Below, piece by piece: positions 25,177-62,494 of a DNA stretch of 64,000 bases (position 1 is its first letter; each line of letters opens with the position of its first letter). The position numbers and the translations under genes are program-made. The notes under the pieces were generated by a model, which did not search any database, had not been told where the DNA came from, and was given only the letters and a program-made list of their open reading frames with translations. This stretch comes from Coleofasciculus sp. B1-GNL1-01 (lineage in GTDB: Bacteria > Cyanobacteriota > Cyanobacteriia > Cyanobacteriales > Coleofasciculaceae), in assembly GCA_040220235.1 (NCBI GenBank), contig JAVJTO010000094.1. One strand, given 5' to 3'.

Positions 25177-28100
25177 TTGGGATTCGGTGCGGCTTCTAAT
25201 TTGGACTTGCCTTATTTAGGGTTGAGTGGAATCCTGTCTGTCAAGTCCTATACATCAGTTCTATCTATTCCACGGAGTTTTGTAGCCCCTATGATTAATT
25301 CTGCAATGAAAGGAGCAATTCTGCTGTTGGCTACTTTACCTTTTTTGGGTGTTACCAGCATACAGCCAACTCAGGCGACTTCAATCCCTCTCAAGGTGGA
25401 TAAAACAGACGTACCGATTGTTCCTCAGTTTAAGCCTAGCTCTCTATTAACAAACACTTCAGTTACTCAGAATACTTTTGCTAAAGATTCTATTGTAACC
25501 AAGGAAGCCACACAGATCAACCCCCCAAGTCTAATCATGGCTCAGTCCGTTACTGGGGCAGGTGATGAGTTAGGGACCACGGTTGAGCAAGACGGTAACC
25601 AATTTAACATCGACGGTGGCACACTTTCCGGAGATAGGGAAAATCTCTTTCACAGTTTCCAAGACTTTGGTCTTTCCGCTGGTGAAATTGCCAATTTTAT
25701 TTCTAATCCTGAAATTCGCAATATCTTGGGGCGGGTAGTTAGTGGGGAAGCTTCAATTATTAATGGTTTGATTCAAGTTACCGGGGGCAACTCGAATTTA
25801 TTTTTAATGAATCCGGCGGGGATTGTATTTGGGGCGAATGCCAGTTTAAATGTCCCCGCGTCGTTTACAGCTACAACCGCGACAGGAATTGGTTTTGCGG
25901 GAGATCAGTGGTTCAATGTCTTTAGTGAAAATAACTATCAAACGTTAATCGGTAATCCCAATCAGTTTGCCTTTGATTTAGCTCAACCCGCAACCCTAAT
26001 TAATGCTGGCAATCTAGCCGTATCAGAAGGGCATAATTTAACCCTACTGGCGGGAAATACGATTAATACCGGGCAACTGACTGCACCGGGCGGCACCATT
26101 ACAATGGCGGCTGTACCGGAATCCAATCGGGTACGGATCAGTCAACCGGGACAATTATTAAGTTTAGAAATTGTACCATCTACCAATGAGAATGGGGAGA
26201 TAGAGGCAATTGATCCCTTGGATTTACCAACGCTGCTGACGGGTACAGAGGAAAGCGTAGAGACGGGATTAACCGTTACGGATACAGGTCAAGTACAGCT
26301 TCAGGAGTCTGGTATCACTGTACCCGCAGACGCCGGGGTTGCGATCGCCTCTGGCACTCTGGATGTGTCTCATGAGTCTCCCACTGTCGATTCCCAGTCG
26401 GTGAATGTGTTTGGCAACAAAGTGGGTGTATTTGATGCCACAATTAACGCTTCTGGGATGTATGGCGGCGGAACAGTACGACTGGGTGGTGACTATCAAG
26501 GTCAAGGTACGTTTAATGCGTCTCAAACCCTAATCAGTGAAAACTCGCTGATTACGGCTGATGCTGGGCTACAGGGGACAGGCGGTGAGGTGTTTGCTTG
26601 GGCAGATGGAGTTACGGGCTTTTATGGGACGATAAGCGCCCGTGGTGGAACGGAAGCGGGAGATGGGGGATTTATTGAAGTTTCTGGCAAAGAGTTGCTG
26701 ATTTTTACGGGTCATGCTGATGCTGGAGCATTTAACGGTCAACCGGGTGCGTTACTGCTTGATCCTAAAAATATCACGATTGGAGACGCCAATTCACCCT
26801 TAGCAATACGCTTTAATCCGACGACTTCATCAACAGAAAATCAGTTTGGTTATTCAGTTGCGGCGCTAGGTTCAGACGTACTCGTAGGTGATCCGGGATA
26901 TGACGAAGGCGGGCAGAACGACGTAGGTATTACTTATTTGTTTGATGGGACTACTGGAGAAGAGATAAAACAATTCTTGAGTCCCAATTCAACAGCAAAT
27001 GGTCGATTCGGTTTTGCTGTAGCTGGGATGGAATCAGACAAGGTTATTGTTGGTGCGCCGGGAGAAAACAACAACAACGGAAGGGTTTATTTATTTGATC
27101 GGGATGGGATACTACAGCGATCATTCGACAACCCAAATTCCTCGATAGCTGAAGGTAACACTCAATTCGGCTTCGGCTATTCCGTCGCCGCCGTGGGGTC
27201 AAATGTTTTGGTCGGCTCTCCAGGAGATGATACCCAAGGAACAGATACAGGTGCGGCTTATTTATTCGAGGGCAATACGGGGACTCGACTGCACGACTTC
27301 TTCAGCCCTAATCCTACGGGTTCGCCCACCAATAACGGTCGATTTGGCTATTCAGTCGCTGGGGTGGATTCAAATGTGCTAGTGGGAGCACCTGGAGACA
27401 ATATAGGGGTAGAAGGCAATATCATAACTGGAGGTGCTGCCTATCTATTTAATAGCAACAGTGGAGATCTAATCGAAACATTTACGAGTCCAAACGCTAC
27501 AGACACCGGGGAGTTCGGGATTTCAGTAGCCGCGATGGGTTCACAAATACTCGTGGGCGCCCCTGGTGATAATCTTGGACAAGGAGTTCAAGGTGCTGCC
27601 TATTGGTTTAATCAGGATGGCGAGTTGCAAAACACTTTTTCTAGTCCCAATGCTGATAACGGTCAATTTGGTACTTCAGTAGCAGCAGTAGAATCGGCGG
27701 AGTCTGCATTAGGGTTTAACGTTGTAGTCAGTGCCCCCGGAGAAAATGCAACCTATTTGTATGAACCCCTGCCAGATTCGGACACGGGACTTTTGTGGCA
27801 AACCTTTCTCAAGCCCTCGGAGTCACCTAGCAATTTTGGTAATGCAGTTGCTGGGGTAGAAAGAAACGTGGTGGTGGGAGCGCCAGGAGGTATGAACGAT
27901 GAAGGCGAGATTTATTTGTTTGGCTCCAGCTTCGAGTTTGATGATAATCCCAACCAATCTGTGACTATCGATGTCGCCACTATTACCAACATTACTAACA
28001 CGGGAACCGAAATTGAGTTTCAGGCAAACAATGACATCACTGTCAAGAAACCAATTACCACTAACAATCAGAACGGAACTGGAGGATCACTGAAATTAAG

Positions 28101-31100
28101 AGCAGGTCGAAGTATTTTTGTCAATGCTAATATCACCACAGATGATGGAAATTTAACCTTAATTGCCAATGATAGTAATGCTATCGATGATTTTCGTGAG
28201 GACGGTAAAGCTTTTATAGAGATAGAAGATGGCTTTGCACTGAATTCGGGGAATGGCGATATATATCTTCAACTCGATACAGGGGGAGAAAGGGGAGATA
28301 TTAATGTTCGGGGTGAGATTATTACTGAGAACGGAGATCTGGTTGTAGAACACAATAATTCTACAGGTGGAAATGTCAATATTGGAGAAACGGCAACGAT
28401 TAAGGTTGTTGGAGATGTTGATATGAACACGAGTGGCGGTAATATTCTTACCAGTGGTAATGTGGCTACCACTAACGGTGAAGTTAGTTTCGCGACTCAA
28501 GGTGGTGACATAGAAATTCAAAATGGGGGTAATGTTTCTACCAATGCTGGTGAGATTAATTTCGCTAGTCAAGGTGGCAATATAGAAATTCAGAATGGGG
28601 GTGATGTTTCTACTAATGGGGATGAGATTCGTTTCATTACTCAGGGTGGAACGATTCAGGTTGATCCGGCGTTCAATTTGACGGGTGAAACGTTCCTGTC
28701 TACAGGTGATGGAACGGGAGATATTCTGTTTAATAATCGTCTTGATGGGACGCAAAATCTCACGCTTACGGCGGGAACGGGTAATGTGAGCTTTGAGGGA
28801 CAAGTAGGTAGCGGTACACCTCTGGGAAACCTGACGATTGCTAGTGCGGGAAATGTGACGGCAAAAGACGCGATCGCAGCCTCTAGCTTTACGCATCAAT
28901 CGGGAACTGGCACAATTAATTTGGCAAATCTTCGAGATATTCAAATCCTGGATGGGGATTTCAGCCTAAATACTACGAATACCCTGACTGTCGGTAATAT
29001 TACAGCAACTGATGGCAAGGTAGAACTGAGTGCCAATAGTAGCCTAACCACCGAAAATATCACCACTTCTGGTGACACCATTAATCTCACCAGTCAAGGC
29101 GAAGAAGTCACGAGTGGTAACTTGGATTCCGGTGGTGGCAATGTGGGAGTGAGTGCTAATAGTAACCTGAACACAGAAGATATCATCACCTCTGGCGGCA
29201 CAATTAATCTCACCAGTACACAGGGAGAAATCAATAGTGGTAACTTGGATTCCGGTAGTGGCAATGTAGACGCAACTGCTAGTAATAATCTGAACACAGC
29301 AAATATCACCACCTCTGGCGGCACAATTAACCTCACCAGTACACAGGGAGAAGTCAGTAGTGATAACTTAAATTCCGGTGGTGGGAATGTAGACGCGAGT
29401 GCCAATAGTAATTTAACTACAGCAAATATCACCACCTCTGGTGGCACAATTAACCTCACCAGTAAAGACGAAGAAATTAATACGGGTGACTTAAATTCTT
29501 CTGCAGCTATTGGCGGTGATATTACTGTAAATGCAAGGATCTCGATTACCACTGAAGCCATCAATTCTAGTGGCACTGAAGGCGATGGTGGCAACGTTAC
29601 CCTCGATCCCCTGGAAGATATTACTGTCAATTCTATTAATGTCCAAGGCGGCAGCAATGGTCAAGGCGGTGATGTTGACATCACGACGCAACAATTCTTT
29701 CAAGCAACAGGAAGTTTTAGCGATCAAAATGGCATAGACGCTAGTATTTCTACGGCTGGCGGTAACGGTGGTGGTGATATTACCATTCGTCATGATGGTG
29801 GCGCAAGAAATGTGCCGTTTGTGGTAGGTGATGGAAGCAAGAATGGTACGGCACAAGCCATTACCAGTGGGGAGTTTACGATTGCACCTGTTCAGTCATT
29901 TCCAGAAAGTCATACTCTCGGTAATATCCGGATTATTACAACTGATCCTCCAACTGATCCTCCAACTAATCCAACTGATCCTCCAACTAATCCAACTGAT
30001 CTGTTAATAGAGTTTAAGAGACCGTTAGAGCGCCCTCCTACTCCTAATGCCTTGGATCAAGAGCCAATTATCAATGCTGATGTTTACAAAATTGAGCGCT
30101 TTTTTACCCAGGCATTTGAGAAACAACTGGGAATGGAGGCGGAAAAAATCCTCACCTTGGATGAAATTCGGAATCGCTTGCGTAGCATTGAGGTGGCAAC
30201 TGGGGTAAAACCTGCTGTAATTTATGGGGTTTTTGTTCCTAGCAGCACTAAATCAGAAATGGAATTAGAACTGATGTTGGTAACAGCGGATCGGGATGTT
30301 ATTACCAAGCGAGTGTCAGGGGCTAAACAGTCTGATGTCCTGAATACAGGACAGAACTTCCGTCAAGAAATTCTTGATGGTGGGTTTGGATATTTAGATG
30401 ACGCCCAACAACTGTATCAATGGATGGTAGCCCCCTTAGAAACAGATTTACAAGAAACAGGAATTGAGAATTTAGTCTTTATTCTCGATGAAGGGTTGCG
30501 CTCATTGCCCATAGCCGCTATCCATGATGGAGATAACTTTATCGTGGAGCGATATAGTGTGAGTTTGATGCCCAGTGTGAGTCTCACAGATACCCGTTAT
30601 GCCGATATTAAAACGATGCCTGTTTTGGCAATGGGTGCTTCAGATTTTCCCGATAATCCTCTTTTGGAACAATTACCAGCAGCGGCGGCTGAGGTATCGA
30701 TTCTGACCAATACCTTATGGCGTGGTCAAGCTTTTCTCAATGAGAATTTTACTGTTAACAATCTCAAGGCAAAACGCGAAGAAAAACCCTTTGGCATTAT
30801 TCACCTGGCTACCCATGCAGAATTTGAACCAGGCGCACCTAGTAATTCTTATATTCAGTTATGGGATACTAAGGTAGGAATGGACGAAGTACGTAGTTTA
30901 GGCTGGCATGATCCGGCTGTAGAATTAGTGGTATTAAGTGCTTGTCGTACTGCCTTAGGTGATCCGAGTGCCGAACTGGGGTTTGCTGGATTTGCGGCTA
31001 AAGCTGGAGTTAAATCAGTATTAGCTAGTTTATGGTACATCGAGGATTGGGGAACGTTGCCAATGATGGCAGAGTTTTACAATAATCTGGATGATGCACC

Positions 31101-31290
31101 GATTAAAGCGGAAGCATGGCGACGGGCGCAAGTGGCAATGATTGAAGGAAAGGTTAAGTATGAAGATAATCAATTAATTTTATCGGATAAAGCCATTGCT
31201 TTGCCAATTACTGATGCTAACCCGGGTAATCCTGACTTATCTCATCCCTATTACTGGTCAGCATTTAGTATTGTTGGTAATCCGTGGTAA
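25177..31290 (+). CDS. TPS/filamentous haemagglutinin protein with FG-GAP propeller and C-terminal CHAT domain
   Basis: TPS motifs NLFHSF and LFLMNPAG; seven FG...VG(A)PG repeats; CHAT HLATHA and LSACRT. Start is probably ATG 25291. Confidence 0.92.
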   Translation: MGFGAASNLDLPYLGLSGILSVKSYTSVLSIPRSFVAPMINSAMKGAILLLATLPFLGVTSIQPTQATSIPLKVDKTDVPIVPQFKPSSLLTNTSVTQNTFAKDSIVTKEATQINPPSLIMAQSVTGAGDELGTTVEQDGNQFNIDGGTLSGDRENLFHSFQDFGLSAGEIANFISNPEIRNILGRVVSGEASIINGLIQVTGGNSNLFLMNPAGIVFGANASLNVPASFTATTATGIGFAGDQWFNVFSENNYQTLIGNPNQFAFDLAQPATLINAGNLAVSEGHNLTLLAGNTINTGQLTAPGGTITMAAVPESNRVRISQPGQLLSLEIVPSTNENGEIEAIDPLDLPTLLTGTEESVETGLTVTDTGQVQLQESGITVPADAGVAIASGTLDVSHESPTVDSQSVNVFGNKVGVFDATINASGMYGGGTVRLGGDYQGQGTFNASQTLISENSLITADAGLQGTGGEVFAWADGVTGFYGTISARGGTEAGDGGFIEVSGKELLIFTGHADAGAFNGQPGALLLDPKNITIGDANSPLAIRFNPTTSSTENQFGYSVAALGSDVLVGDPGYDEGGQNDVGITYLFDGTTGEEIKQFLSPNSTANGRFGFAVAGMESDKVIVGAPGENNNNGRVYLFDRDGILQRSFDNPNSSIAEGNTQFGFGYSVAAVGSNVLVGSPGDDTQGTDTGAAYLFEGNTGTRLHDFFSPNPTGSPTNNGRFGYSVAGVDSNVLVGAPGDNIGVEGNIITGGAAYLFNSNSGDLIETFTSPNATDTGEFGISVAAMGSQILVGAPGDNLGQGVQGAAYWFNQDGELQNTFSSPNADNGQFGTSVAAVESAESALGFNVVVSAPGENATYLYEPLPDSDTGLLWQTFLKPSESPSNFGNAVAGVERNVVVGAPGGMNDEGEIYLFGSSFEFDDNPNQSVTIDVATITNITNTGTEIEFQANNDITVKKPITTNNQNGTGGSLKLRAGRSIFVNANITTDDGNLTLIANDSNAIDDFREDGKAFIEIEDGFALNSGNGDIYLQLDTGGERGDINVRGEIITENGDLVVEHNNSTGGNVNIGETATIKVVGDVDMNTSGGNILTSGNVATTNGEVSFATQGGDIEIQNGGNVSTNAGEINFASQGGNIEIQNGGDVSTNGDEIRFITQGGTIQVDPAFNLTGETFLSTGDGTGDILFNNRLDGTQNLTLTAGTGNVSFEGQVGSGTPLGNLTIASAGNVTAKDAIAASSFTHQSGTGTINLANLRDIQILDGDFSLNTTNTLTVGNITATDGKVELSANSSLTTENITTSGDTINLTSQGEEVTSGNLDSGGGNVGVSANSNLNTEDIITSGGTINLTSTQGEINSGNLDSGSGNVDATASNNLNTANITTSGGTINLTSTQGEVSSDNLNSGGGNVDASANSNLTTANITTSGGTINLTSKDEEINTGDLNSSAAIGGDITVNARISITTEAINSSGTEGDGGNVTLDPLEDITVNSINVQGGSNGQGGDVDITTQQFFQATGSFSDQNGIDASISTAGGNGGGDITIRHDGGARNVPFVVGDGSKNGTAQAITSGEFTIAPVQSFPESHTLGNIRIITTDPPTDPPTNPTDPPTNPTDLLIEFKRPLERPPTPNALDQEPIINADVYKIERFFTQAFEKQLGMEAEKILTLDEIRNRLRSIEVATGVKPAVIYGVFVPSSTKSEMELELMLVTADRDVITKRVSGAKQSDVLNTGQNFRQEILDGGFGYLDDAQQLYQWMVAPLETDLQETGIENLVFILDEGLRSLPIAAIHDGDNFIVERYSVSLMPSVSLTDTRYADIKTMPVLAMGASDFPDNPLLEQLPAAAAEVSILTNTLWRGQAFLNENFTVNNLKAKREEKPFGIIHLATHAEFEPGAPSNSYIQLWDTKVGMDEVRSLGWHDPAVELVVLSACRTALGDPSAELGFAGFAAKAGVKSVLASLWYIEDWGTLPMMAEFYNNLDDAPIKAEAWRRAQVAMIEGKVKYEDNQLILSDKAIALPITDANPGNPDLSHPYYWSAFSIVGNPW

Positions 31291-48520: not shown

Positions 48521-49755
48521 ATACGAATATAACACCGATTAAGTAGATTAAACCAATGCTATTAGGTTTTAAGACCGAATTAAAACTTAATAACAAGCAG
48601 CGAACGGCGCTAGCTAAACACGCTGGCGTTTCTCGCCATGCTTGGAATTGGGGTTTAGGTTTAACCAAACAGATACTCTTACACAATCGGGACAACCCAG
48701 AGGATAAAATCAAGTTTCCTACTGGGATTGACTTGCACTCATTGTTGGTAGCTCTGGTTAAACCCATTTGCCCTTGGTATTACGAAGTGAGTAAATGCGC
48801 CCCTCAGTATGCGCTTAGGCAATTAGCTCAAGCCTGGAAAGATGCGTTTAAGAAAAATAAAAAGCCACCTCGGTTTAAGAAGAAAGGACGGGGAGATAGC
48901 TTTACCCTAGATGGCTCAATTGCACTTGAGCATTTTAAAATCAGGGTTCCGGTTATTGGCTGGTTGAGGACGCATGAGCGGCTGCCCGTCTGTTTTCAGC
49001 CCAAGTCCGTCACCATATCCAGGACAGCAGACCGATGGTTCATCAGCTTTAAGCTGGAACATGAGCCAGTTAACCGACCCAAATCTCACTCTGTAGTGGG
49101 CGTTGATCTTGGTATAAAAGCATTAGCTGTCTTGTCTACTGGGATTGTAGTAGAGGGGGCAAAAGCTTATCGAAAGTACGAGAAGAAACTCTCTCGCCTG
49201 CAATGGTTAAACCGCCACAAGCAAATCGGTTCGGCTAACTGGAAGTCTTCCCAAATCAAAATAGCTCGTTTGCACCGAAAAATAGCCAACATCAGAAAGG
49301 ACACGTTGCACAAGCTCACATCCTATTTAGCCAAAAACCACAGCCGAATAGGAATAGAAAATTTAAACGTGTCTGGGATGATGGCTAATCATAAGCTAGC
49401 CAAAGCTATCCAGGACATGGGCTTTTATGAGTTTAAACGCCAGCTAGAGTACAAGTGCAAGTTGTACGGGTCAACACTGGTCGTAGTAGACCAATGGTAT
49501 CCCTCAACCAAAACCTGTTCTCGTTGTCATGTCATCAAGGATGAAATGCCTTTATCTGAGCAGGTTTTTCGGTGTGATAACTGCGGATTGGAAATTGATC
49601 GAGATTTCAACGCTTCCATTAATTTGGAAGTAGCCGCCAGTTAGGTGGGGGAGAGCCTGTGGACTGCTTAAGTGCCGTCACGGCCAGAATGAAGCAGGAA
49701 GTAAACAGCAAAATTTACCAGGTATTGGTAGATTTGTGTAAGTTTTATGTAACGG
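48521..49755 (+). mobile_element. tnpB-only insertion sequence, probably IS607-like; left boundary uncertain
   Basis: tnpB followed by a ~110-nt tail ending GTAAGTTTTATGTAACGG. No tnpA. Flanked by two pieces of a host gene. Confidence 0.65.
48556..49644 (+). CDS. tnpB: RNA-guided nuclease TnpB (IS200/IS605/IS607 ORF B)
   Basis: GVDLGIK (RuvC-I D), IGIENLNV (E), CSRC..CDNC zinc finger and DRDFNASIN (D). Confidence 0.95.
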   Translation: MLLGFKTELKLNNKQRTALAKHAGVSRHAWNWGLGLTKQILLHNRDNPEDKIKFPTGIDLHSLLVALVKPICPWYYEVSKCAPQYALRQLAQAWKDAFKKNKKPPRFKKKGRGDSFTLDGSIALEHFKIRVPVIGWLRTHERLPVCFQPKSVTISRTADRWFISFKLEHEPVNRPKSHSVVGVDLGIKALAVLSTGIVVEGAKAYRKYEKKLSRLQWLNRHKQIGSANWKSSQIKIARLHRKIANIRKDTLHKLTSYLAKNHSRIGIENLNVSGMMANHKLAKAIQDMGFYEFKRQLEYKCKLYGSTLVVVDQWYPSTKTCSRCHVIKDEMPLSEQVFRCDNCGLEIDRDFNASINLEVAAS

Positions 49756-54015: not shown

Positions 54016-54159
54016 CTACCCTTCAATATCCTTATCGTTGATTAGCACATACATCCAGACAACGACAACCGCCGTCACCAGCAGCAGGGGGTATTCAGGC
54101 AGCGCCGCTAAGATTACAATAATCTCCAGGATGGTTTTAAGGTCTTCAAATCGTTTCAT
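54016..54159 (-). CDS. 47-aa hydrophobic microprotein, absent from the ORF track
   Basis: MKRFEDLKTILEIIVILAALPEYPLLLVTAVVVVWMYVLINDKDIEG; divergent from 54293. Confidence 0.45.
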   Translation of the reverse strand: MKRFEDLKTILEIIVILAALPEYPLLLVTAVVVVWMYVLINDKDIEG

Positions 54160-54292
54160 TGAATCAGATTGAACTCTTAATCCCATTCAAGGAGAAGGCT
54201 AGGTGAGTACCGGGTTGAGAAATTTGGCTGAAGTGGCTGACTTCTGGCTAACTTTGAGTTGACCTGAATTGACTTTTCGCTGATTATGAATA

Positions 54293-55384
54293 ATGGCGCG
54301 ATCGCTTAAAGTTGCCCCAGAGTACATAAACCACGTCAAATCAGCACTTCGGCGCAATGGCTACCCCAGCCAAAAGAAGTTTGCTGAACACGTTACCCCA
54401 TCGTTATCCACGGTTAAAAAATTCCTCAATGGCGAACCCGTTGATTTTGAGTATTTTGTCGAACTGTGTGACGCATTGGGGTTAAACTGGCGAGATATTT
54501 TTTTAGATGAGTCAGACAATCCGCCCTCTCCTCATGACTCAAACCCAACCCTGGAGGAGTCTTCACCCTTCATCACCGGGACACCCATCACCCATCCCCG
54601 CTATTTTTTTGGACGCAAACGAGAACTCAAACGCCTGTTCAATTTACTCAAACGCCATCCCCTACAAAATGCAGCGATTATCGGGAAGCGGCGCATCGGC
54701 AAAACCTCCCTGTTGCACTACTTGAAAACTATTACCACGACGCCACCGGAGGAATTACGTCCCGGTCAAAAGTCGGACTGGTTACCCTATCCCGAACGCT
54801 ACTGTTGGATATTTGTGGATTTTCAGGATACACGGATGGCAAGCCAAGAAAAATTGCTGGGTTATATTCTGGAAGGCATGAATATGAAAGTGCCGAAGCC
54901 TTGTCACCTGGATTATTTTATGGATGTGGTGAGTAGCCATTTGCATTCACCCACCGTTATTTTATTGGATGAAATTGGTGTGGGATTGCAACGTTGTCCA
55001 GAATTAGATGATGGGTTTTGGGAAAGTTTACGGTCTTTAGCCACGAATCAGACAGGGGGAAATCTGGCTTTTATTTTAGCCACACCGGAATCTCCCCTGG
55101 ATTTGGCGTCTCATACGGGACATAGTTCTCCCTTTTTCAATATCTTTGGCTATACCGCCTATCTGGGCGCATTGACGGAGGCGGAAGCGCGGGAATTGAT
55201 TGATAGTTCACCGATTCCGTTTCCAGTTGAGGATGTAGCCTGGATTTTGGAGAAAAGTCAATGTTTACCCCTACTGCTGCAAATTCTGTGTCGCGAACGT
55301 TTGTTTAGTTTGGAAGAGGGGGAAACGGGAGATAATTGGCGGGAGGAGGCGTTAAAACAGATAGAACCCTTCACGAATTTGTAG
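54293..55384 (+). CDS. HTH-fused STAND/AAA-type P-loop ATPase
   Basis: N-terminal XRE-like HTH; FFGRKREL, Walker A GKRRIGKTS, Walker B ILLDE and SPFFNIF. Confidence 0.88.
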   Translation: MARSLKVAPEYINHVKSALRRNGYPSQKKFAEHVTPSLSTVKKFLNGEPVDFEYFVELCDALGLNWRDIFLDESDNPPSPHDSNPTLEESSPFITGTPITHPRYFFGRKRELKRLFNLLKRHPLQNAAIIGKRRIGKTSLLHYLKTITTTPPEELRPGQKSDWLPYPERYCWIFVDFQDTRMASQEKLLGYILEGMNMKVPKPCHLDYFMDVVSSHLHSPTVILLDEIGVGLQRCPELDDGFWESLRSLATNQTGGNLAFILATPESPLDLASHTGHSSPFFNIFGYTAYLGALTEAEARELIDSSPIPFPVEDVAWILEKSQCLPLLLQILCRERLFSLEEGETGDNWREEALKQIEPFTNL

Positions 55385-55494
55385 AGAACCCAGTTTTTAT
55401 GTAGGGTGGGCAAGATTTATAAACCTTCAAACGCTTACATTATCGTTGGTTGCTCTTGCCCACCCTACGGTAACTTACGCTAGAGAGGTAAACC

Positions 55495-56112
55495 ATGTCA
55501 TTTAGCAGTTATAAAAGTATTGGCGTCGTCGCTAAAACGTTTCAGATCAAATATATTCGAGACAATTTTATTACCGAGATTGAATTTGACGTGAGTGATA
55601 GTTTCCGGAATGAATTAGAGTTAATTTTAAATGAGGGGGTGTTTGACAATTCCGAGATGGCGATTTGTGAAACGATTATTTATCCCATATTAAAAGAAGT
55701 TTGGAAAGCTTATCGCCGCAATTTCCTGCTTTGGAGTCACCAAGCCTTGACCTACGATGAAAACTTATCGGGGACTCCTGATTATATCGTGGCAAAGCGC
55801 TCTCCCTTGGGGACAGTGGTGTTCGATAAGCCCTATTTTGTAGTGGTTGAGGCAAAGAAGGAGAGTGATTTTACTGAAGGATGGGGGCAATGTTTGGCAG
55901 AGATGGTGGCGGTGCAGAAAATTAACAATGATCCAGAACAACGGATATTTGGTGTTGTTTCCAATGGGGCGATATGGCAGTTTGGTCAACTGATATCTGA
56001 TGAGTTTACCCAAAATAAGCGGTTTTATACAATTCAGGACTTGGAGCGGTTATTTGCTGCCGTAAATTATGTTTTTCAACAATGTGAGTTACAGTTGGAT
56101 CAGCAATTGTAA
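55495..56112 (+). CDS. PD-(D/E)XK-like hypothetical protein
   Basis: LSGTPDY, VVVEAKK, GWGQCLAEMVAVQ and VSNGAIWQF. Confidence 0.8.
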   Translation: MSFSSYKSIGVVAKTFQIKYIRDNFITEIEFDVSDSFRNELELILNEGVFDNSEMAICETIIYPILKEVWKAYRRNFLLWSHQALTYDENLSGTPDYIVAKRSPLGTVVFDKPYFVVVEAKKESDFTEGWGQCLAEMVAVQKINNDPEQRIFGVVSNGAIWQFGQLISDEFTQNKRFYTIQDLERLFAAVNYVFQQCELQLDQQL

Positions 56113-56169
56113 CTCGTTATCGCGAATTTATATTACAATTCACAGAGTCACATTTTAACAAAAACTGAG

Positions 56170-58530
56170 ATGTCTTACCCCTCGGTTCCCCGCAACGCCT
56201 ACACTGATGCACCTGAGCAGCACCCGAACTTTATTTTGGGGAGTTTGCAATTGCTGTTCTGGCTGTTCTTTCATCCCTCAGCGTTTCGTAACCATCTCAA
56301 ACGCATTGATCCTACCTTGGACTTCCACAATAACCGAATAAATTCGCTGTGCTGGCGAAACTTAGCATTATGGAAGCTTCTGTTTCAGGGATACATCATT
56401 GTACCGATGATAATGAGTTTGTTGTTTGCAGCAGACACTTTATATCGAGGGGAATTGAATGCTAATGCTATTGTCTCTCTCATAGTATGGGATGTACTGT
56501 TCGTGATATTTGGTGTGGTTGAAGGTGTGGGGGGAGGTGTGGGGGTAGGCGTGGCGCAAGGTGTGGGGGTAGGCGTGGCTTTTGGTGTGGTGTTTGGCAT
56601 GGCACGAGGCGTGGGTGTAGGCGTGGCTTTTGGCGTTAGAGTAGGCATAGTAGGAGGCGTGGGTGTAGGCGTGGCTTTTGGCGTTAGAGTAGGCGTTATA
56701 TATGCCGTTAATGGCGTTAGAGTAAGCATAGTGGAAGCGGTGATGGCTGTCGTGATGGCTGTCGTGATATATGGCGTAATGCATTACGTGAGGTATGGCG
56801 TGATGTACTGTGTGGGAGTCACAATGCAATTGTGGCGACCTATCGTAACCTATCCCTTGGTCACTCTATGGAATGCACTGCTTTATCGTCTTGACCTGAA
56901 ACGCCTAGATACAAAATCTTGCTTTCTGCGCTGGCATTCAGCCTTTTGGGACGAGCGGCAAAGTTTACGCCTCCCTGAACTAGACCAGCACCTTGTCCTA
57001 GTCTGGGAACGCAACCCTACCGAGGGAAAAGCTGCCATTGACTATCTCAATAGTAGCCCGCAACGTTGGGCTGCTCAAGCAGCACAGATTGAACTGGATG
57101 CTAGAAAATTAGAATACTGTACTGATATCGATTCTATCCGTAACGTTTATAGCACATTTGCTTCAGGAAACTTGGAAGGCTCTCCTAACCCAATTTTGTA
57201 TAAATTTAACTATATCAGTGCCGATGTAGATGCCGCTTTCAACCAGAATAGTCTCTATAACCAACGCATCGCTCTGGAAAATGTCGCCAAAACTCTAGAG
57301 CTTTTTATCGAAGAATTAACTAGAAGTAGTAATCAATACGCTCCTCGCTTTCGTCGCATTGCCATTCATTGGCAGCAAATAGTTGTTGAGTACGTACAAA
57401 CATTAATCGCAGCCACTGAACTACGCCAAGAAATTGATGATCCTTACATCTTTGGTGTACCCCTAAATGAACAGGTTAAACTCTTCATGGGACGCACTAG
57501 CATTGGGCTTCGCATCGAAAAATTAATCCTAGACCGTCGCCGCCCTCCCTTACTCCTCTATGGTCAGCGACGTATGGGCAAAACCTCTCTGCTGAATAAC
57601 TTAGGACGCCTCCTCCCGAATTCCATCATCCCCATGTTCGTCGATTTACAAGGCGCACCCACATCAGCGAGTGACCATGCGGGTTTTCTCTATAATCTTG
57701 CCAAAGGGATGACCTATTCGGCTAAACGGCAAGCTGGTTTAACCCTACCTCCCCTCACCCGCGAAGCCTTAACCTCTGACCCCTTTACGACCTTTGATGA
57801 ATGGCTGGATAAAGTTGAACAAACACTAGAAAAAAACACCGCACTCCTAGCATTAGACGAATTCGAGGTACTGGATAAAGCCTTAACCGAAGGACGTTTC
57901 AGCGAAACCGATGTCCTAGGGATGCTACGCCATCTTATCCAACACCGCCCCCGCTTTAAAGTCTTACTGGCTGGCTCTCATACTATCAAAGAATTTCAGC
58001 GCTGGGCGAGTTACTTGATTAACGTTCAGGTTGTCCATATCAGTTACCTGAACGAACCCGAAGCCCGCCAACTGATTGAACGCCCCATCCCAGAGTTTAC
58101 CCTACGCTATGAACCCGATGCGGTTGAGCGAGTCCTCTCCCTAACCCGATGTCATCCCTGCTTGGTACAATTACTCTGCTCTGAGATTGTCGCCCTGAAA
58201 AATGAGCAAGAGGTATCGATTCGCCGACTAGCAACTGTGGCTGATGTGGAAGCCGCTATACCCGAAGCCTTAAGCAGTGGTAGCTTCTTCTTTGCCGATA
58301 TCGAACGCAATCAAGTGGATGAGTTGGGATTGGCGATACTGCGCTTTTTAGCCGCACAAGGGGAAGGGGCGAGTATTGGTAAGGTGGTTTTATCCCGCGA
58401 GTTTCCTGCTCCTCTGAATCCTAGCCTCAATTTACTGTTGCAACGGGAGTTAATTGAAGATAGTGGTGGCGGCTACTGCTTCCAAGTGGAGTTAATCCGG
58501 CGCTGGTTTGCCAGAGAGACAGGGGAGTAA
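56170..58530 (+). CDS. Membrane-anchored STAND/AAA ATPase with Gly/Val repeat region
   Basis: TM N-terminus and GVGVGVAFG repeats; LFMGR, Walker A GQRRMGKTS, Walker B LALDEFE and CHPCLVQ. Confidence 0.88.
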   Translation: MSYPSVPRNAYTDAPEQHPNFILGSLQLLFWLFFHPSAFRNHLKRIDPTLDFHNNRINSLCWRNLALWKLLFQGYIIVPMIMSLLFAADTLYRGELNANAIVSLIVWDVLFVIFGVVEGVGGGVGVGVAQGVGVGVAFGVVFGMARGVGVGVAFGVRVGIVGGVGVGVAFGVRVGVIYAVNGVRVSIVEAVMAVVMAVVIYGVMHYVRYGVMYCVGVTMQLWRPIVTYPLVTLWNALLYRLDLKRLDTKSCFLRWHSAFWDERQSLRLPELDQHLVLVWERNPTEGKAAIDYLNSSPQRWAAQAAQIELDARKLEYCTDIDSIRNVYSTFASGNLEGSPNPILYKFNYISADVDAAFNQNSLYNQRIALENVAKTLELFIEELTRSSNQYAPRFRRIAIHWQQIVVEYVQTLIAATELRQEIDDPYIFGVPLNEQVKLFMGRTSIGLRIEKLILDRRRPPLLLYGQRRMGKTSLLNNLGRLLPNSIIPMFVDLQGAPTSASDHAGFLYNLAKGMTYSAKRQAGLTLPPLTREALTSDPFTTFDEWLDKVEQTLEKNTALLALDEFEVLDKALTEGRFSETDVLGMLRHLIQHRPRFKVLLAGSHTIKEFQRWASYLINVQVVHISYLNEPEARQLIERPIPEFTLRYEPDAVERVLSLTRCHPCLVQLLCSEIVALKNEQEVSIRRLATVADVEAAIPEALSSGSFFFADIERNQVDELGLAILRFLAAQGEGASIGKVVLSREFPAPLNPSLNLLLQRELIEDSGGGYCFQVELIRRWFARETGE

Positions 58531-58654
58531 TATCTTGAGTTTGTCGTTGTGCAGTCTTCGCCCTACGCGATCGCAGGGAGAATAGCGCGTGTAAGACCTC
58601 AAGCTCGGCAATGCGTGGTGAGCCGTCAACCGTTCGGCGTTCAACTGGTAGGAA

Positions 58655-61705: not shown

Positions 61706-61709
61706 GTTC

Positions 61710-61764
61710 GTAGTTGCGCTTGTAGTTGCGCTTGTAGTTGCGCTTGTAGTTGCGCTTTAGCGCC
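61710..61764. repeat. 12-bp tandem GTAGTTGCGCTT x4 ending in a REP-like hairpin
   Basis: Directly visible. The last unit completes GCGCTTTAGCGC; a related element lies at about 15266..15290. Confidence 0.85.
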
Positions 61765-61888
61765 ATCAACGTTTGCATCACCCCCTACAATTTATGATAG
61801 ATGCCAGGAAATAAATTTCCGGCTGAAAGCTTACTACATTAAACGCTTTTCACCCTGCCCTCTAGCTGCTGTCTTCTGCTTTCTGCCT

Positions 61889-62494
61889 TTATTCCTGCTG
61901 TATCATCCACACCAAAAAGGCTAAAATTTGCTCAACGGGTGGTAGAGGATAAACGATTAAATCAATCGTGACAGTAGTGGCTTCTAATTTAAGAAATTGC
62001 CATTGGTTACCATTACTAACTGTACCATAGATACATTGAAGCGGTTGTTCCTTAGCGATATTAAATTTCTGGGCAGCCACCATTTCCGCCACACATTGAC
62101 CAATTCCCGATTTAAGATTAGCTTGTTTCGCCTCCACAATCACAACCGCCGGGGCTTCAATGTCTAAAAGTTCGGGGGAACGACTGATCAGGAAGTCACA
62201 ACGTCCATTAAGTCCCAGTGATTCATCGACGTTAAAGTCTTCGCCAGAAAATAAACTAATTTGACGGTTCAAAATGCGCCGTACTTCCACTAAAACTGGG
62301 CTAATAATTAATTCAGATCTGGCTTTCTCACTTCCTGTCGCTACAGCGAGAGGGAGATTTTCGTCCAGAATGGCGGCTAAGGTAGAACTAGGTTGAACTG
62401 GGTCAATTTCCGGCAAAAATCGAATCCCTTCTGCTGTCGTGAGATTGAAGGCTTCTTTGGCTTTAGCAAGCGTGGTGAATTGACTGTATGGCAT
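61889..62494 (-). CDS. PD-(D/E)XK-like hypothetical protein (same family as 55495)
   Basis: SEKARSELIISP, LNGRCDF, IVEAK, GQCVAEMVAAQ and SNGNQWQF. Confidence 0.82.
   Translation of the reverse strand: MPYSQFTTLAKAKEAFNLTTAEGIRFLPEIDPVQPSSTLAAILDENLPLAVATGSEKARSELIISPVLVEVRRILNRQISLFSGEDFNVDESLGLNGRCDFLISRSPELLDIEAPAVVIVEAKQANLKSGIGQCVAEMVAAQKFNIAKEQPLQCIYGTVSNGNQWQFLKLEATTVTIDLIVYPLPPVEQILAFLVWMIQQE

Follow-up and report, generated by a model that had tools for sequence, protein, structure and literature searches.

A conserved pair of MNS-type STAND ATPases in Coleofasciculus, one of them membrane-anchored, and its possible role as a membrane-to-transcription switch

Those bacterial STAND immune proteins that have been characterised consist of one chain and sense through soluble repeats. 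Avs and bacterial NACHT proteins are described as single polypeptides with large C-terminal TPR, WD40 or FGE sensors (10.64898/2026.01.04.697583), and two-STAND operons are known from nSTAND2 (Kaur et al. 2021, PMC8195603), where one of the two ATPases is inactive, with eroded nucleoside triphosphate-binding motifs, and carries TPR+HEPN or GT4, in proteobacteria for the rows examined. Here we analyse a locus in a 64,000-nucleotide stretch (the window) of contig JAVJTO010000094.1 of Coleofasciculus sp. B1-GNL1-01. In agreement with a preliminary description made from the sequence, an ATPase with a helix-turn-helix (HTH) domain (gene A, 54293-55384, 363 aa) and a membrane-anchored ATPase (gene C, 56170-58530, 786 aa) are co-oriented, all on the plus strand, around a PD-(D/E)XK-family gene (gene B, 55495-56112, 205 aa). 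We conclude that the A-C pair is a conserved, uncharacterised variant of paired MNS-type STAND systems and not a new category. Our preferred reading, held at about even odds, is that it acts as a two-ATPase membrane-to-transcription switch with a conflict-type trigger, belonging to the conflict toolkit of multicellular bacteria.

The pair resembles nSTAND2 in being a mobile two-gene operon of two MNS-like STAND ATPases, with a predicted hetero-multimer and variable fused modules. Unlike in nSTAND2, both ATPases are intact, one is membrane-anchored and the output is mostly DNA-binding; with no eroded ATPase, no GT4 or HEPN effector and no PF20702, identity with nSTAND2 was ruled out. Neither PF20702 nor GT4 or HEPN is listed at E<=0.01 for A, C or the 12 A orthologs scanned; a search of the own genome for PF20702 gave no match with controls silent too, and is hence uninformative. 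With the MNS clade (archaeal MJ/PH/SSO-type ATPases, 2qen/2fna) the two proteins share their best Foldseek matches and the lack of sensor repeats, and C shares in addition the order of ATPase, lid and winged helix; unlike the archaeal ATPases, C carries a putative N-terminal membrane sensor and its partner A is truncated. An MNS clade family, Npun2340/2341, is named in PMC8195603. We regard A and C as basal, MNS-like STAND relatives, of which only C has the full core. The Npun2340/2341 family is reportedly defined, by signature and gene pairing, in Leipe 2004.

Cyanobacterial AAA_35 pairs, in which an HTH+AAA_35 gene is followed by AAA_35 fused to WD40, a periplasmic binding protein or GUN4+LRR, have the same two-gene layout, the same HTH and passengers in the gap. 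Three of them are found in the same genome (L142-L144; G000:C88:49447-54276, C12:23022-27901 and C96:13073-17530), their sensors being a periplasmic binding protein, GUN4+LRR and WD40, and the pair at C88 has an HSDR_N passenger in its gap and a phased TGACTT chain. In contrast to the A-C pair, their sensors are C-terminal and soluble or periplasmic, and they form a separate starred clade of the tree, which indicates a separate duplication. On this ground, and with PF14516 (AAA_35) not listed by Pfam for A or C (under cut-off in 3 of 12 A orthologs), the assignment of A-C to the AAA_35 pairs was rejected.

MalT- and SARP-type STAND regulators form ATP-dependent oligomers on arrayed direct repeats. 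The likeness to the present locus lies in arrayed direct repeats, in the SARP cluster to which 17 of 62 A orthologs belong and in the alignment of MalT entry 8bob with A; the difference is that sensor and DNA-binding domain are here split over two ATPases, with no TPR sensor. Avs and bacterial NACHT proteins share the STAND-like NTPase core, and TIR and peptidase effectors occur on some relatives, but neither A nor C has the C-terminal TPR, WD40, LRR or FGE sensors in Pfam searches or AlphaFold2 models. The 2026 survey (10.64898/2026.01.04.697583) restricted its analysis to sensors lying C-terminally of the NTPase, so that a membrane sensor at the N-terminus would not be covered by it. The iSTAND MoxR-vWA ternary systems (PMC7159879) and TRADD-N systems (PMC8195603) have in common with our locus the HTH, a divergent small membrane gene (PF20712 at several A loci), the TIR/trypsin/EAD swap set and a multicellular host range; unlike them, the window locus has no MoxR, vWA or TRADD-N component. 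The EACC1 membrane two-gene system, with its caspase partner and single helix (PMC7159879), was rejected.

The preliminary description had called the locus a candidate undescribed system. This holds insofar as NCBIfam and PADLOC match no characterised system: NCBIfam has no family for any of five proteins, and PADLOC gives A and C short P-loop matches with no full-length match. It has to be qualified in view of the nSTAND2 operons (PMC8195603), of the three similar AAA_35 pairs in the genome and of the array and microprotein, which belong to the HTH cassette discussed below. A literature search returned no description of a membrane-anchored A-C pair, although the clade tables of the 2026 STAND survey (10.64898/2026.01.04.697583) or Leipe 2004 may already list the family; 10.1101/2023.09.22.558884 adds nothing on the pair, and searches of the supplements of PMC8195603 and PMC7159879 for four accessions of relatives gave no hit. 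What the present work adds is a modelled interface, the candidate operator and small-gene cassette, quantified variability and the passenger status of B.

The conservation of the two ATPases as a pair is well supported. From 92 confirmed C relatives the best 80 loci were kept, from Cyanobacteria, Chloroflexota, Thiotrichaceae and two metagenome-assembled genomes with other labels. Eleven of the 80 had too little flank; in 65 of the 69 informative loci gene A precedes C, the two frames often overlapping or abutting, and all four genomes of the remaining loci have A elsewhere. Reciprocally, 250 other cyanobacterial genomes were scanned, with no more than 8-10 candidates scored in each. A was found in 14, C in 13 and both in 12; the two genes were adjacent in 10 of these, on separate contigs in one and ~15 kb apart in one, and in the two A-only genomes A sits near contig ends. 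A and C are paralogs (probability 98.2, E 3e-14). Their distances are correlated (Spearman 0.81, 54 pairs); common ancestry accounts for this mirror correlation, which we accordingly do not take as evidence of co-evolution. In the tree the small partners are not united in a starred clade (82/79, long branches), and we therefore do not claim a single origin of all of them. The same genome contains a second, distant pair of small ATPase and membrane ATPase (L123:6340-10569, on C168) and an orphan 346-aa ATPase (L148:3743-4783, on C42) with a partial nSTAND2 match (E 1e-8), which groups with the small partners of sister pairs.

Gene A consists of a Cro/XRE-like HTH (residues ~1-72) followed by an MNS/Cdc6-like ATPase with a helical lid. 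Its AlphaFold2 model (pLDDT 92) shows the HTH, a disordered linker, a P-loop domain and the lid, and ends past the lid, at residue 363, with no winged helix. Pfam matches are weak, HTH_26 and AAA_16 (each under the cut-off) for A, and ATPase_2 and nSTAND1 for both A and C; against solved structures the sequence profile of A reaches a best E of 0.014. By structure, Foldseek places 2qen and 2fna as best matches, and A aligns with Cdc6/Orc1 (2qby; Z 18.5, root mean square deviation 3.8, 240 residues) and with 8bob (Z 14.6, 3.3, 215 residues). Close relatives of A in the protein collection carry the name of Coleofasciculus ATP-binding proteins. As previously noted, Walker motifs are intact in both window copies, with GxRRxGKTS present in each (GKRRIGKTS and ILLDE in A, GQRRMGKTS and LALDE in C). 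Among relatives, all 68 C sequences and 61 of the 62 A sequences have intact Walker motifs; GxRRxGKTS is the same in every C sequence (68/68), whereas in A its first arginine is kept in only 36 of 62. The STAND signature motifs are hhGRExE and GxP; the consensus here is FFGRExE / IFVGR and SGxWP / RGHP, both window copies having Cys instead of Gly before Pro. The claim that both ATPases are STAND proteins can be kept for C, which has a full STAND-like core, but not entirely for A, which ends without the winged helix. The absence of TPR and WD repeats was confirmed: Pfam, at E<=0.01, finds no TPR, WD or LRR family in either protein.

A hetero-oligomer of the two proteins had been proposed, and modelling agrees with it. 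When the soluble part of C was folded with the A ATPase the complex score was 0.70, against 0.00 for the best of three controls; of 157 solved complexes 116 reach the mark applied, as do 2 of 215 mismatched pairs, figures that are only roughly valid with the alignments used. Model runs agree in at least 74% of contacts, with a partner pLDDT of at least 82. In the predicted complex, residues 241-290 of A, R247 included, contact C at 467-472, 563-564 and 603 and lie on the Walker A and Walker B motifs and residue 603 of C, while C 702-714 packs against A 282-290. R247 of A and R587 of C, which are aligned, are invariant. The model thus supports binding between A and C.

Gene C starts with a conserved N-cap, followed by a hypervariable glycine-rich membrane region (~65-244), a helical linker (~270-420), the ATPase (~421-700) and a winged helix (~705-785). 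Pfam identifies AAA_22. The AlphaFold2 model (pLDDT 82 overall) has long hydrophobic helices at 65-244, with values below 50 at 137-185, and helices with a beta-wing at 705-785 after the helical domain; a hydropathy scan finds five hydrophobic segments. The best fold match is 2qen (Foldseek, TM 0.69 by target), with 2fna also among the best; searched by sequence against solved structures, the C profile gave nothing at E<=0.1. Variability is concentrated in the membrane region: compared with a same-genus copy (G003), 76 of 165 positions are identical at residues 51-215 and 268 of 280 in the ATPase, and over 67 C relatives mean identity is 0.21 in the membrane region against 0.69 in the ATPase. 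The length of the region between anchors ranges from 138 to 414 residues (41 of 68 rows, those with both anchors found). Inside the gene, on the plus strand at 56512..56768, 12/48-nt tandem repeats (Tandem Repeats Finder, period 48, score 193) encode Gly/Val-rich helices, and are likely the source of this length variation. At 90% identity the A cluster has 41 members and the C cluster 2. Synonymous divergence is 0.25-0.44 in the first half of C, where the alignment is unreliable, versus 0.12 for A, which suggests exchange of modules rather than point selection.

Four C membrane regions searched against Pfam match no family at E<=0.05. A sister pair carries the receptor domain CHASE2 in place of the membrane region, and the tree unites the CHASE2-bearing protein with C in one starred clade (21 rows, support 99/95). 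This substitution suggests that the membrane region of C is the input, and we infer that the hypervariable region is a sensor. At one orthologous same-genus site the ATPase domains of the large protein are closely related, yet it has CHASE2 in G001 (L120:6308-8923) where the G003 protein (L119) has a glycine-rich membrane region, which makes this a clean sensor swap; L121 and L122 are like L120 by sequence. Another locus has, upstream of the pair, a stand-alone 540-aa copy of the N-terminal and linker region of C without ATPase (L033:2640-4262), which may be a spare allele or decoy. In the ESM Atlas the C linker (0.78) and the microprotein described below (0.81) match unnamed clusters, to be taken as leads only.

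The N-terminus of A is exchangeable, as had been anticipated. The 62 A orthologs were clustered by N-terminus and the clusters labelled from representatives: 17 have the cyanobacterial HTH, 17 a SARP-type domain (they cluster with a BTAD-confirmed SARP fusion), 4 other HTH-like domains, 15 an unnamed Chloroflexota helical domain and 2 TIR; kinase, TCAD9 and EAD2 occur once each, and 4 have none. Recognisable DNA-binding types are thereby found on 38 of 62 and an effector, adaptor or kinase on 5 of 62; a trypsin fusion is also among the swaps on A or sister small ATPases. TIR, EAD2 and trypsin are listed as conflict effectors or adaptors in PMC7159879 and PMC8195603, and TCAD9 was counted with them by its Pfam name. 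In nine loci (L052, L059, L062, L065, L068, L070, L077, L078, L084) a TadE-like cluster, a candidate regulated target, lies upstream on the opposite strand, facing a SARP-type A. Beside five pairs whose A has the Chloroflexota helical domain (L056, L063, L073, L076, L110) there is a conserved unnamed membrane-gene cluster with a weak Yip1 match.

Upstream of gene A, at 54238..54286 on the plus strand, lies the phased direct-repeat array announced by the preliminary description. Four copies (TGACTT, TAACTT, TGACCT and TGACTT at 54238, 54249, 54260 and 54270, spacing 11, 11 and 10) have at most one mismatch, and a fifth has two; a repeat finder shows the array as a weak two-copy family. We consider it a candidate operator. 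A phased chain of at least two copies occurs in 12 of 17 orthologs with the cyanobacterial HTH, 2 of 45 others and 84 of 4197 own-genome open reading frames (ORFs); it should be noted that the motif was derived from the window, so that only other loci count as tests, and that kin are not independent. Divergent from gene A is the microprotein (54016..54159, minus strand), also reported earlier, with a hydrophobic segment forming a single membrane helix, a candidate regulated output or modulator. Its start is most likely 54159 (47 aa), because the 56-aa frame has a stop at codon 4 in 3 of 5 same-genus copies and distant homologs start at the second ATG. Of 52 genomes from the family, 20 contain homologs (E<=0.01); at all nine distant loci fetched they are divergent to the same HTH gene, in which the HTH is joined, where tested, to iSTAND or AAA_35.

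A small divergent membrane ORF accompanies 9 of 17 cyanobacterial-HTH orthologs, 2 of 44 others and 77 of 4147 own-genome ORFs. The slot is filled by at least three families unrelated by sequence, one being PF20712 CyanoTRADDas_TM. The same HTH heads iSTAND/MoxR/vWA and TRADD-N loci; between gene A and TRADD-N proteins it is 32% identical over 65 residues, and the TRADD-N-related HTH appears to be the TRADD-N-aHTH1 of the PMC8195603 supplement. Array and small membrane gene travel with the HTH and form, therefore, a portable cassette common to described conflict systems; they belong to the HTH cassette and not to the A-C pair alone.

Gene B matches PADLOC PD_DExK (E 2.5e-47), as does the paralog (61889-62494) already noticed in the preliminary description, which is 32% identical to B. 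Judged from comparison of loci, B is a lineage-restricted passenger, in line with the earlier suspicion: of 80 related loci a single one has a member of its family between the pair, as have the close relatives G001, G003 and G005, the family has 24 loci in the own genome at E<1e-5, and other occupants of the gap elsewhere are PIN, HicB, HNH and DUF5995. Between A and B, at 55401..55468, there is a perfect inverted repeat (15-nt arms, 55401-55415/55454-55468; 38-nt spacer), a variable insertion site outside the system whose segment is replaced in same-genus loci. Of the REPIN placed here earlier, what can be retained is an inverted repeat that we call REP-like (repetitive extragenic palindromic), because the arm has 17 exact copies in the genome.

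The pair is patchily distributed, as the count of A in 14 of 250 cyanobacterial genomes indicates, and its hosts we take to be largely filamentous. Among five close same-genus copies G003 is intact and G001, G002, G005 and G006 carry deletions or fragments, to which draft assemblies may add artefacts. The joint of the G002 deletion, from 54483 to 57799, recurs in all four public runs compared, which also yield contigs of the intact A-B part; the four runs are possibly one campaign. Contigs from RNA-library runs may hold DNA, and the middle of C has no coverage in them, to which no weight is given. Of 436 cluster representatives of neighbouring genes, the nearest 150 were scanned, and the defence-like ones comprise several toxin-antitoxin genes, an HNH gene and a type IIG restriction enzyme; linkage of the pair to defence islands is weak. 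In viral contigs 341 pattern hits were obtained, none of which was confirmed.

In the mechanism that we propose, C would be a membrane-anchored sensor whose exchangeable glycine-rich helices respond to something in the membrane, the trigger being most likely of biological-conflict origin, such as a foreign membrane protein, a pore or contact. A would be the output subunit, docking its outward-facing arginine surface on the ATP site of C, and the signal would alter the oligomeric state of A; C activating A and C sequestering A are equally possible. In cyanobacteria the HTH of A would act on the 11-bp-phased TGACTT array and control its own operon and the divergent small membrane-protein gene, whereas some other bacteria, a minority, have a direct effector or adaptor (TIR, EAD2, TCAD9, kinase) in place of the HTH; B would be a passenger. 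Pairing, intact motifs, domain swaps, hypervariability and the co-travel of array and small gene with the HTH are observed, and the A-C interface is modelled; C would sense, A would bind DNA, and the direction of control and the conflict trigger are likewise presumed. We argue for a conflict trigger because of the patchy presence, the TIR/EAD2/TCAD9/trypsin swaps, the shared cassette, the filamentous hosts and the decay of the locus. A bolder and rather improbable version is a sensor-helper pair of NLR type: one membrane-embedded C, with a repeat-driven glycine-rich receptor for foreign membrane proteins or non-kin contact, would seed a head-to-tail filament of A, which would read the 11-bp-phased operator and turn on a small membrane protein, of interchangeable type, to seal or kill the cell within its filament of cells. 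With the trans face of A on the ATP site of C, A's own site would be free for the next A.

Several points weigh against the switch. A and C are paralogous AAA+ domains, so that the complex pass may reflect likeness to solved AAA+/ORC-type interfaces, and the three controls did not include a paralog-swapped pair. The modelled membrane topology of C is of low confidence at residues 137-185. The HTH of gene A is under the Pfam cut-off and may only autoregulate; the array is absent (chain 1) in 5 of 17 cyanobacterial-HTH orthologs, and the filter used for the small gene did not find it at 8 of 17. As regards conflict, most neighbours scanned are metabolic genes, an argument against a typical defence island. 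Also against conflict are the prevalence of DNA-binding outputs, the TadE-like genes that lie opposite the SARP versions of related Chloroflexota, and the absence of viral copies among the hits in viral contigs. Under direct abortive infection a phage trigger would make the ATPases oligomerise, and the glycine-rich helices of C, or the microprotein, would then open a lethal pore; A would be a regulatory subunit with an HTH that only autoregulates the operon. This would fit the effector fusions on A (TIR twice, EAD2, TCAD9) or on A or sister small ATPases (trypsin), the rapid locus decay with a coexisting deletion allele and the toxin-antitoxin genes often inserted nearby; we nevertheless think it unlikely, as effector fusions are few (5/62) beside DNA-binding ones, CHASE2 is able to replace the membrane region, no full-length PADLOC match exists and defence neighbours are few.

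The opposite view, in which the pair would respond to envelope stress or to a small molecule and regulate genes for the cell surface or for development in a MalT- or SARP-like manner, receives similarly little credence from us. It accounts for the SARP-type fusions (17/62), the TadE-like genes divergently upstream in at least nine Chloroflexota loci, the CHASE2 variant and the metabolic neighbourhoods, but the loci with TadE synteny come from related taxa and may owe it to common descent. The view also fits poorly with a presence in 14 of 250 genomes, with TIR/EAD2 fusions, with a locus that is often broken in close relatives and with a sensor region that varies far more than the remainder. 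That B is the effector of a three-gene nuclease system is very improbable: it is co-oriented, intact and under purifying selection (pN 0.012, pS 0.154 vs G003), and is kept in place in G001, G003, G005 and L055, yet it is set against this that the family is in the gap in 1 of 80 loci, has 24 loci in the genome and is substituted by other genes elsewhere, while an HSDR_N gene sits inside an AAA_35 pair of the same genome. Chance adjacency of two unrelated ATPase genes, which the four loci without A nearby and the one genome with a ~15-kb separation might suggest, is practically negligible against 65 of 69 adjacent loci across three phyla, often with overlapping or abutting frames, the four exceptions having A elsewhere.

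The flanks of the locus are ordinary, with an amidase upstream and a zinc dehydrogenase, a class II aldolase and an HAD hydrolase downstream. Right-flank synteny with same-genus loci stops at window position 58575, the window right flank being rearranged; the gene that continues past this breakpoint in relatives is one that we take to resemble DXP reductoisomerase. A 131-aa PLD-like fragment (PF13091, 49759-50154), possibly the remnant of a disrupted restriction-type gene, adjoins an IS605 OrfB/TnpB-like gene (48556-49644). After the HAD hydrolase gene, at 61706-61774, there are short REP-like tandem 12-nt repeats with a copy at C168, and a 2037-aa ORF occupies 25177-31290. A promoter scan yielded 7 sites against 4.8 expected and was not informative.

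The family is sizeable: for C without its membrane region there are 1087 representatives at 50% identity (E<=1e-30), and cultured cyanobacteria are among the hosts. If the proposed switch is correct, a pair of intact ATPases would add membrane sensing and a transcriptional arm to the STAND toolkit, and it would offer a tractable model of sensor-helper nucleation in filament-forming bacteria.

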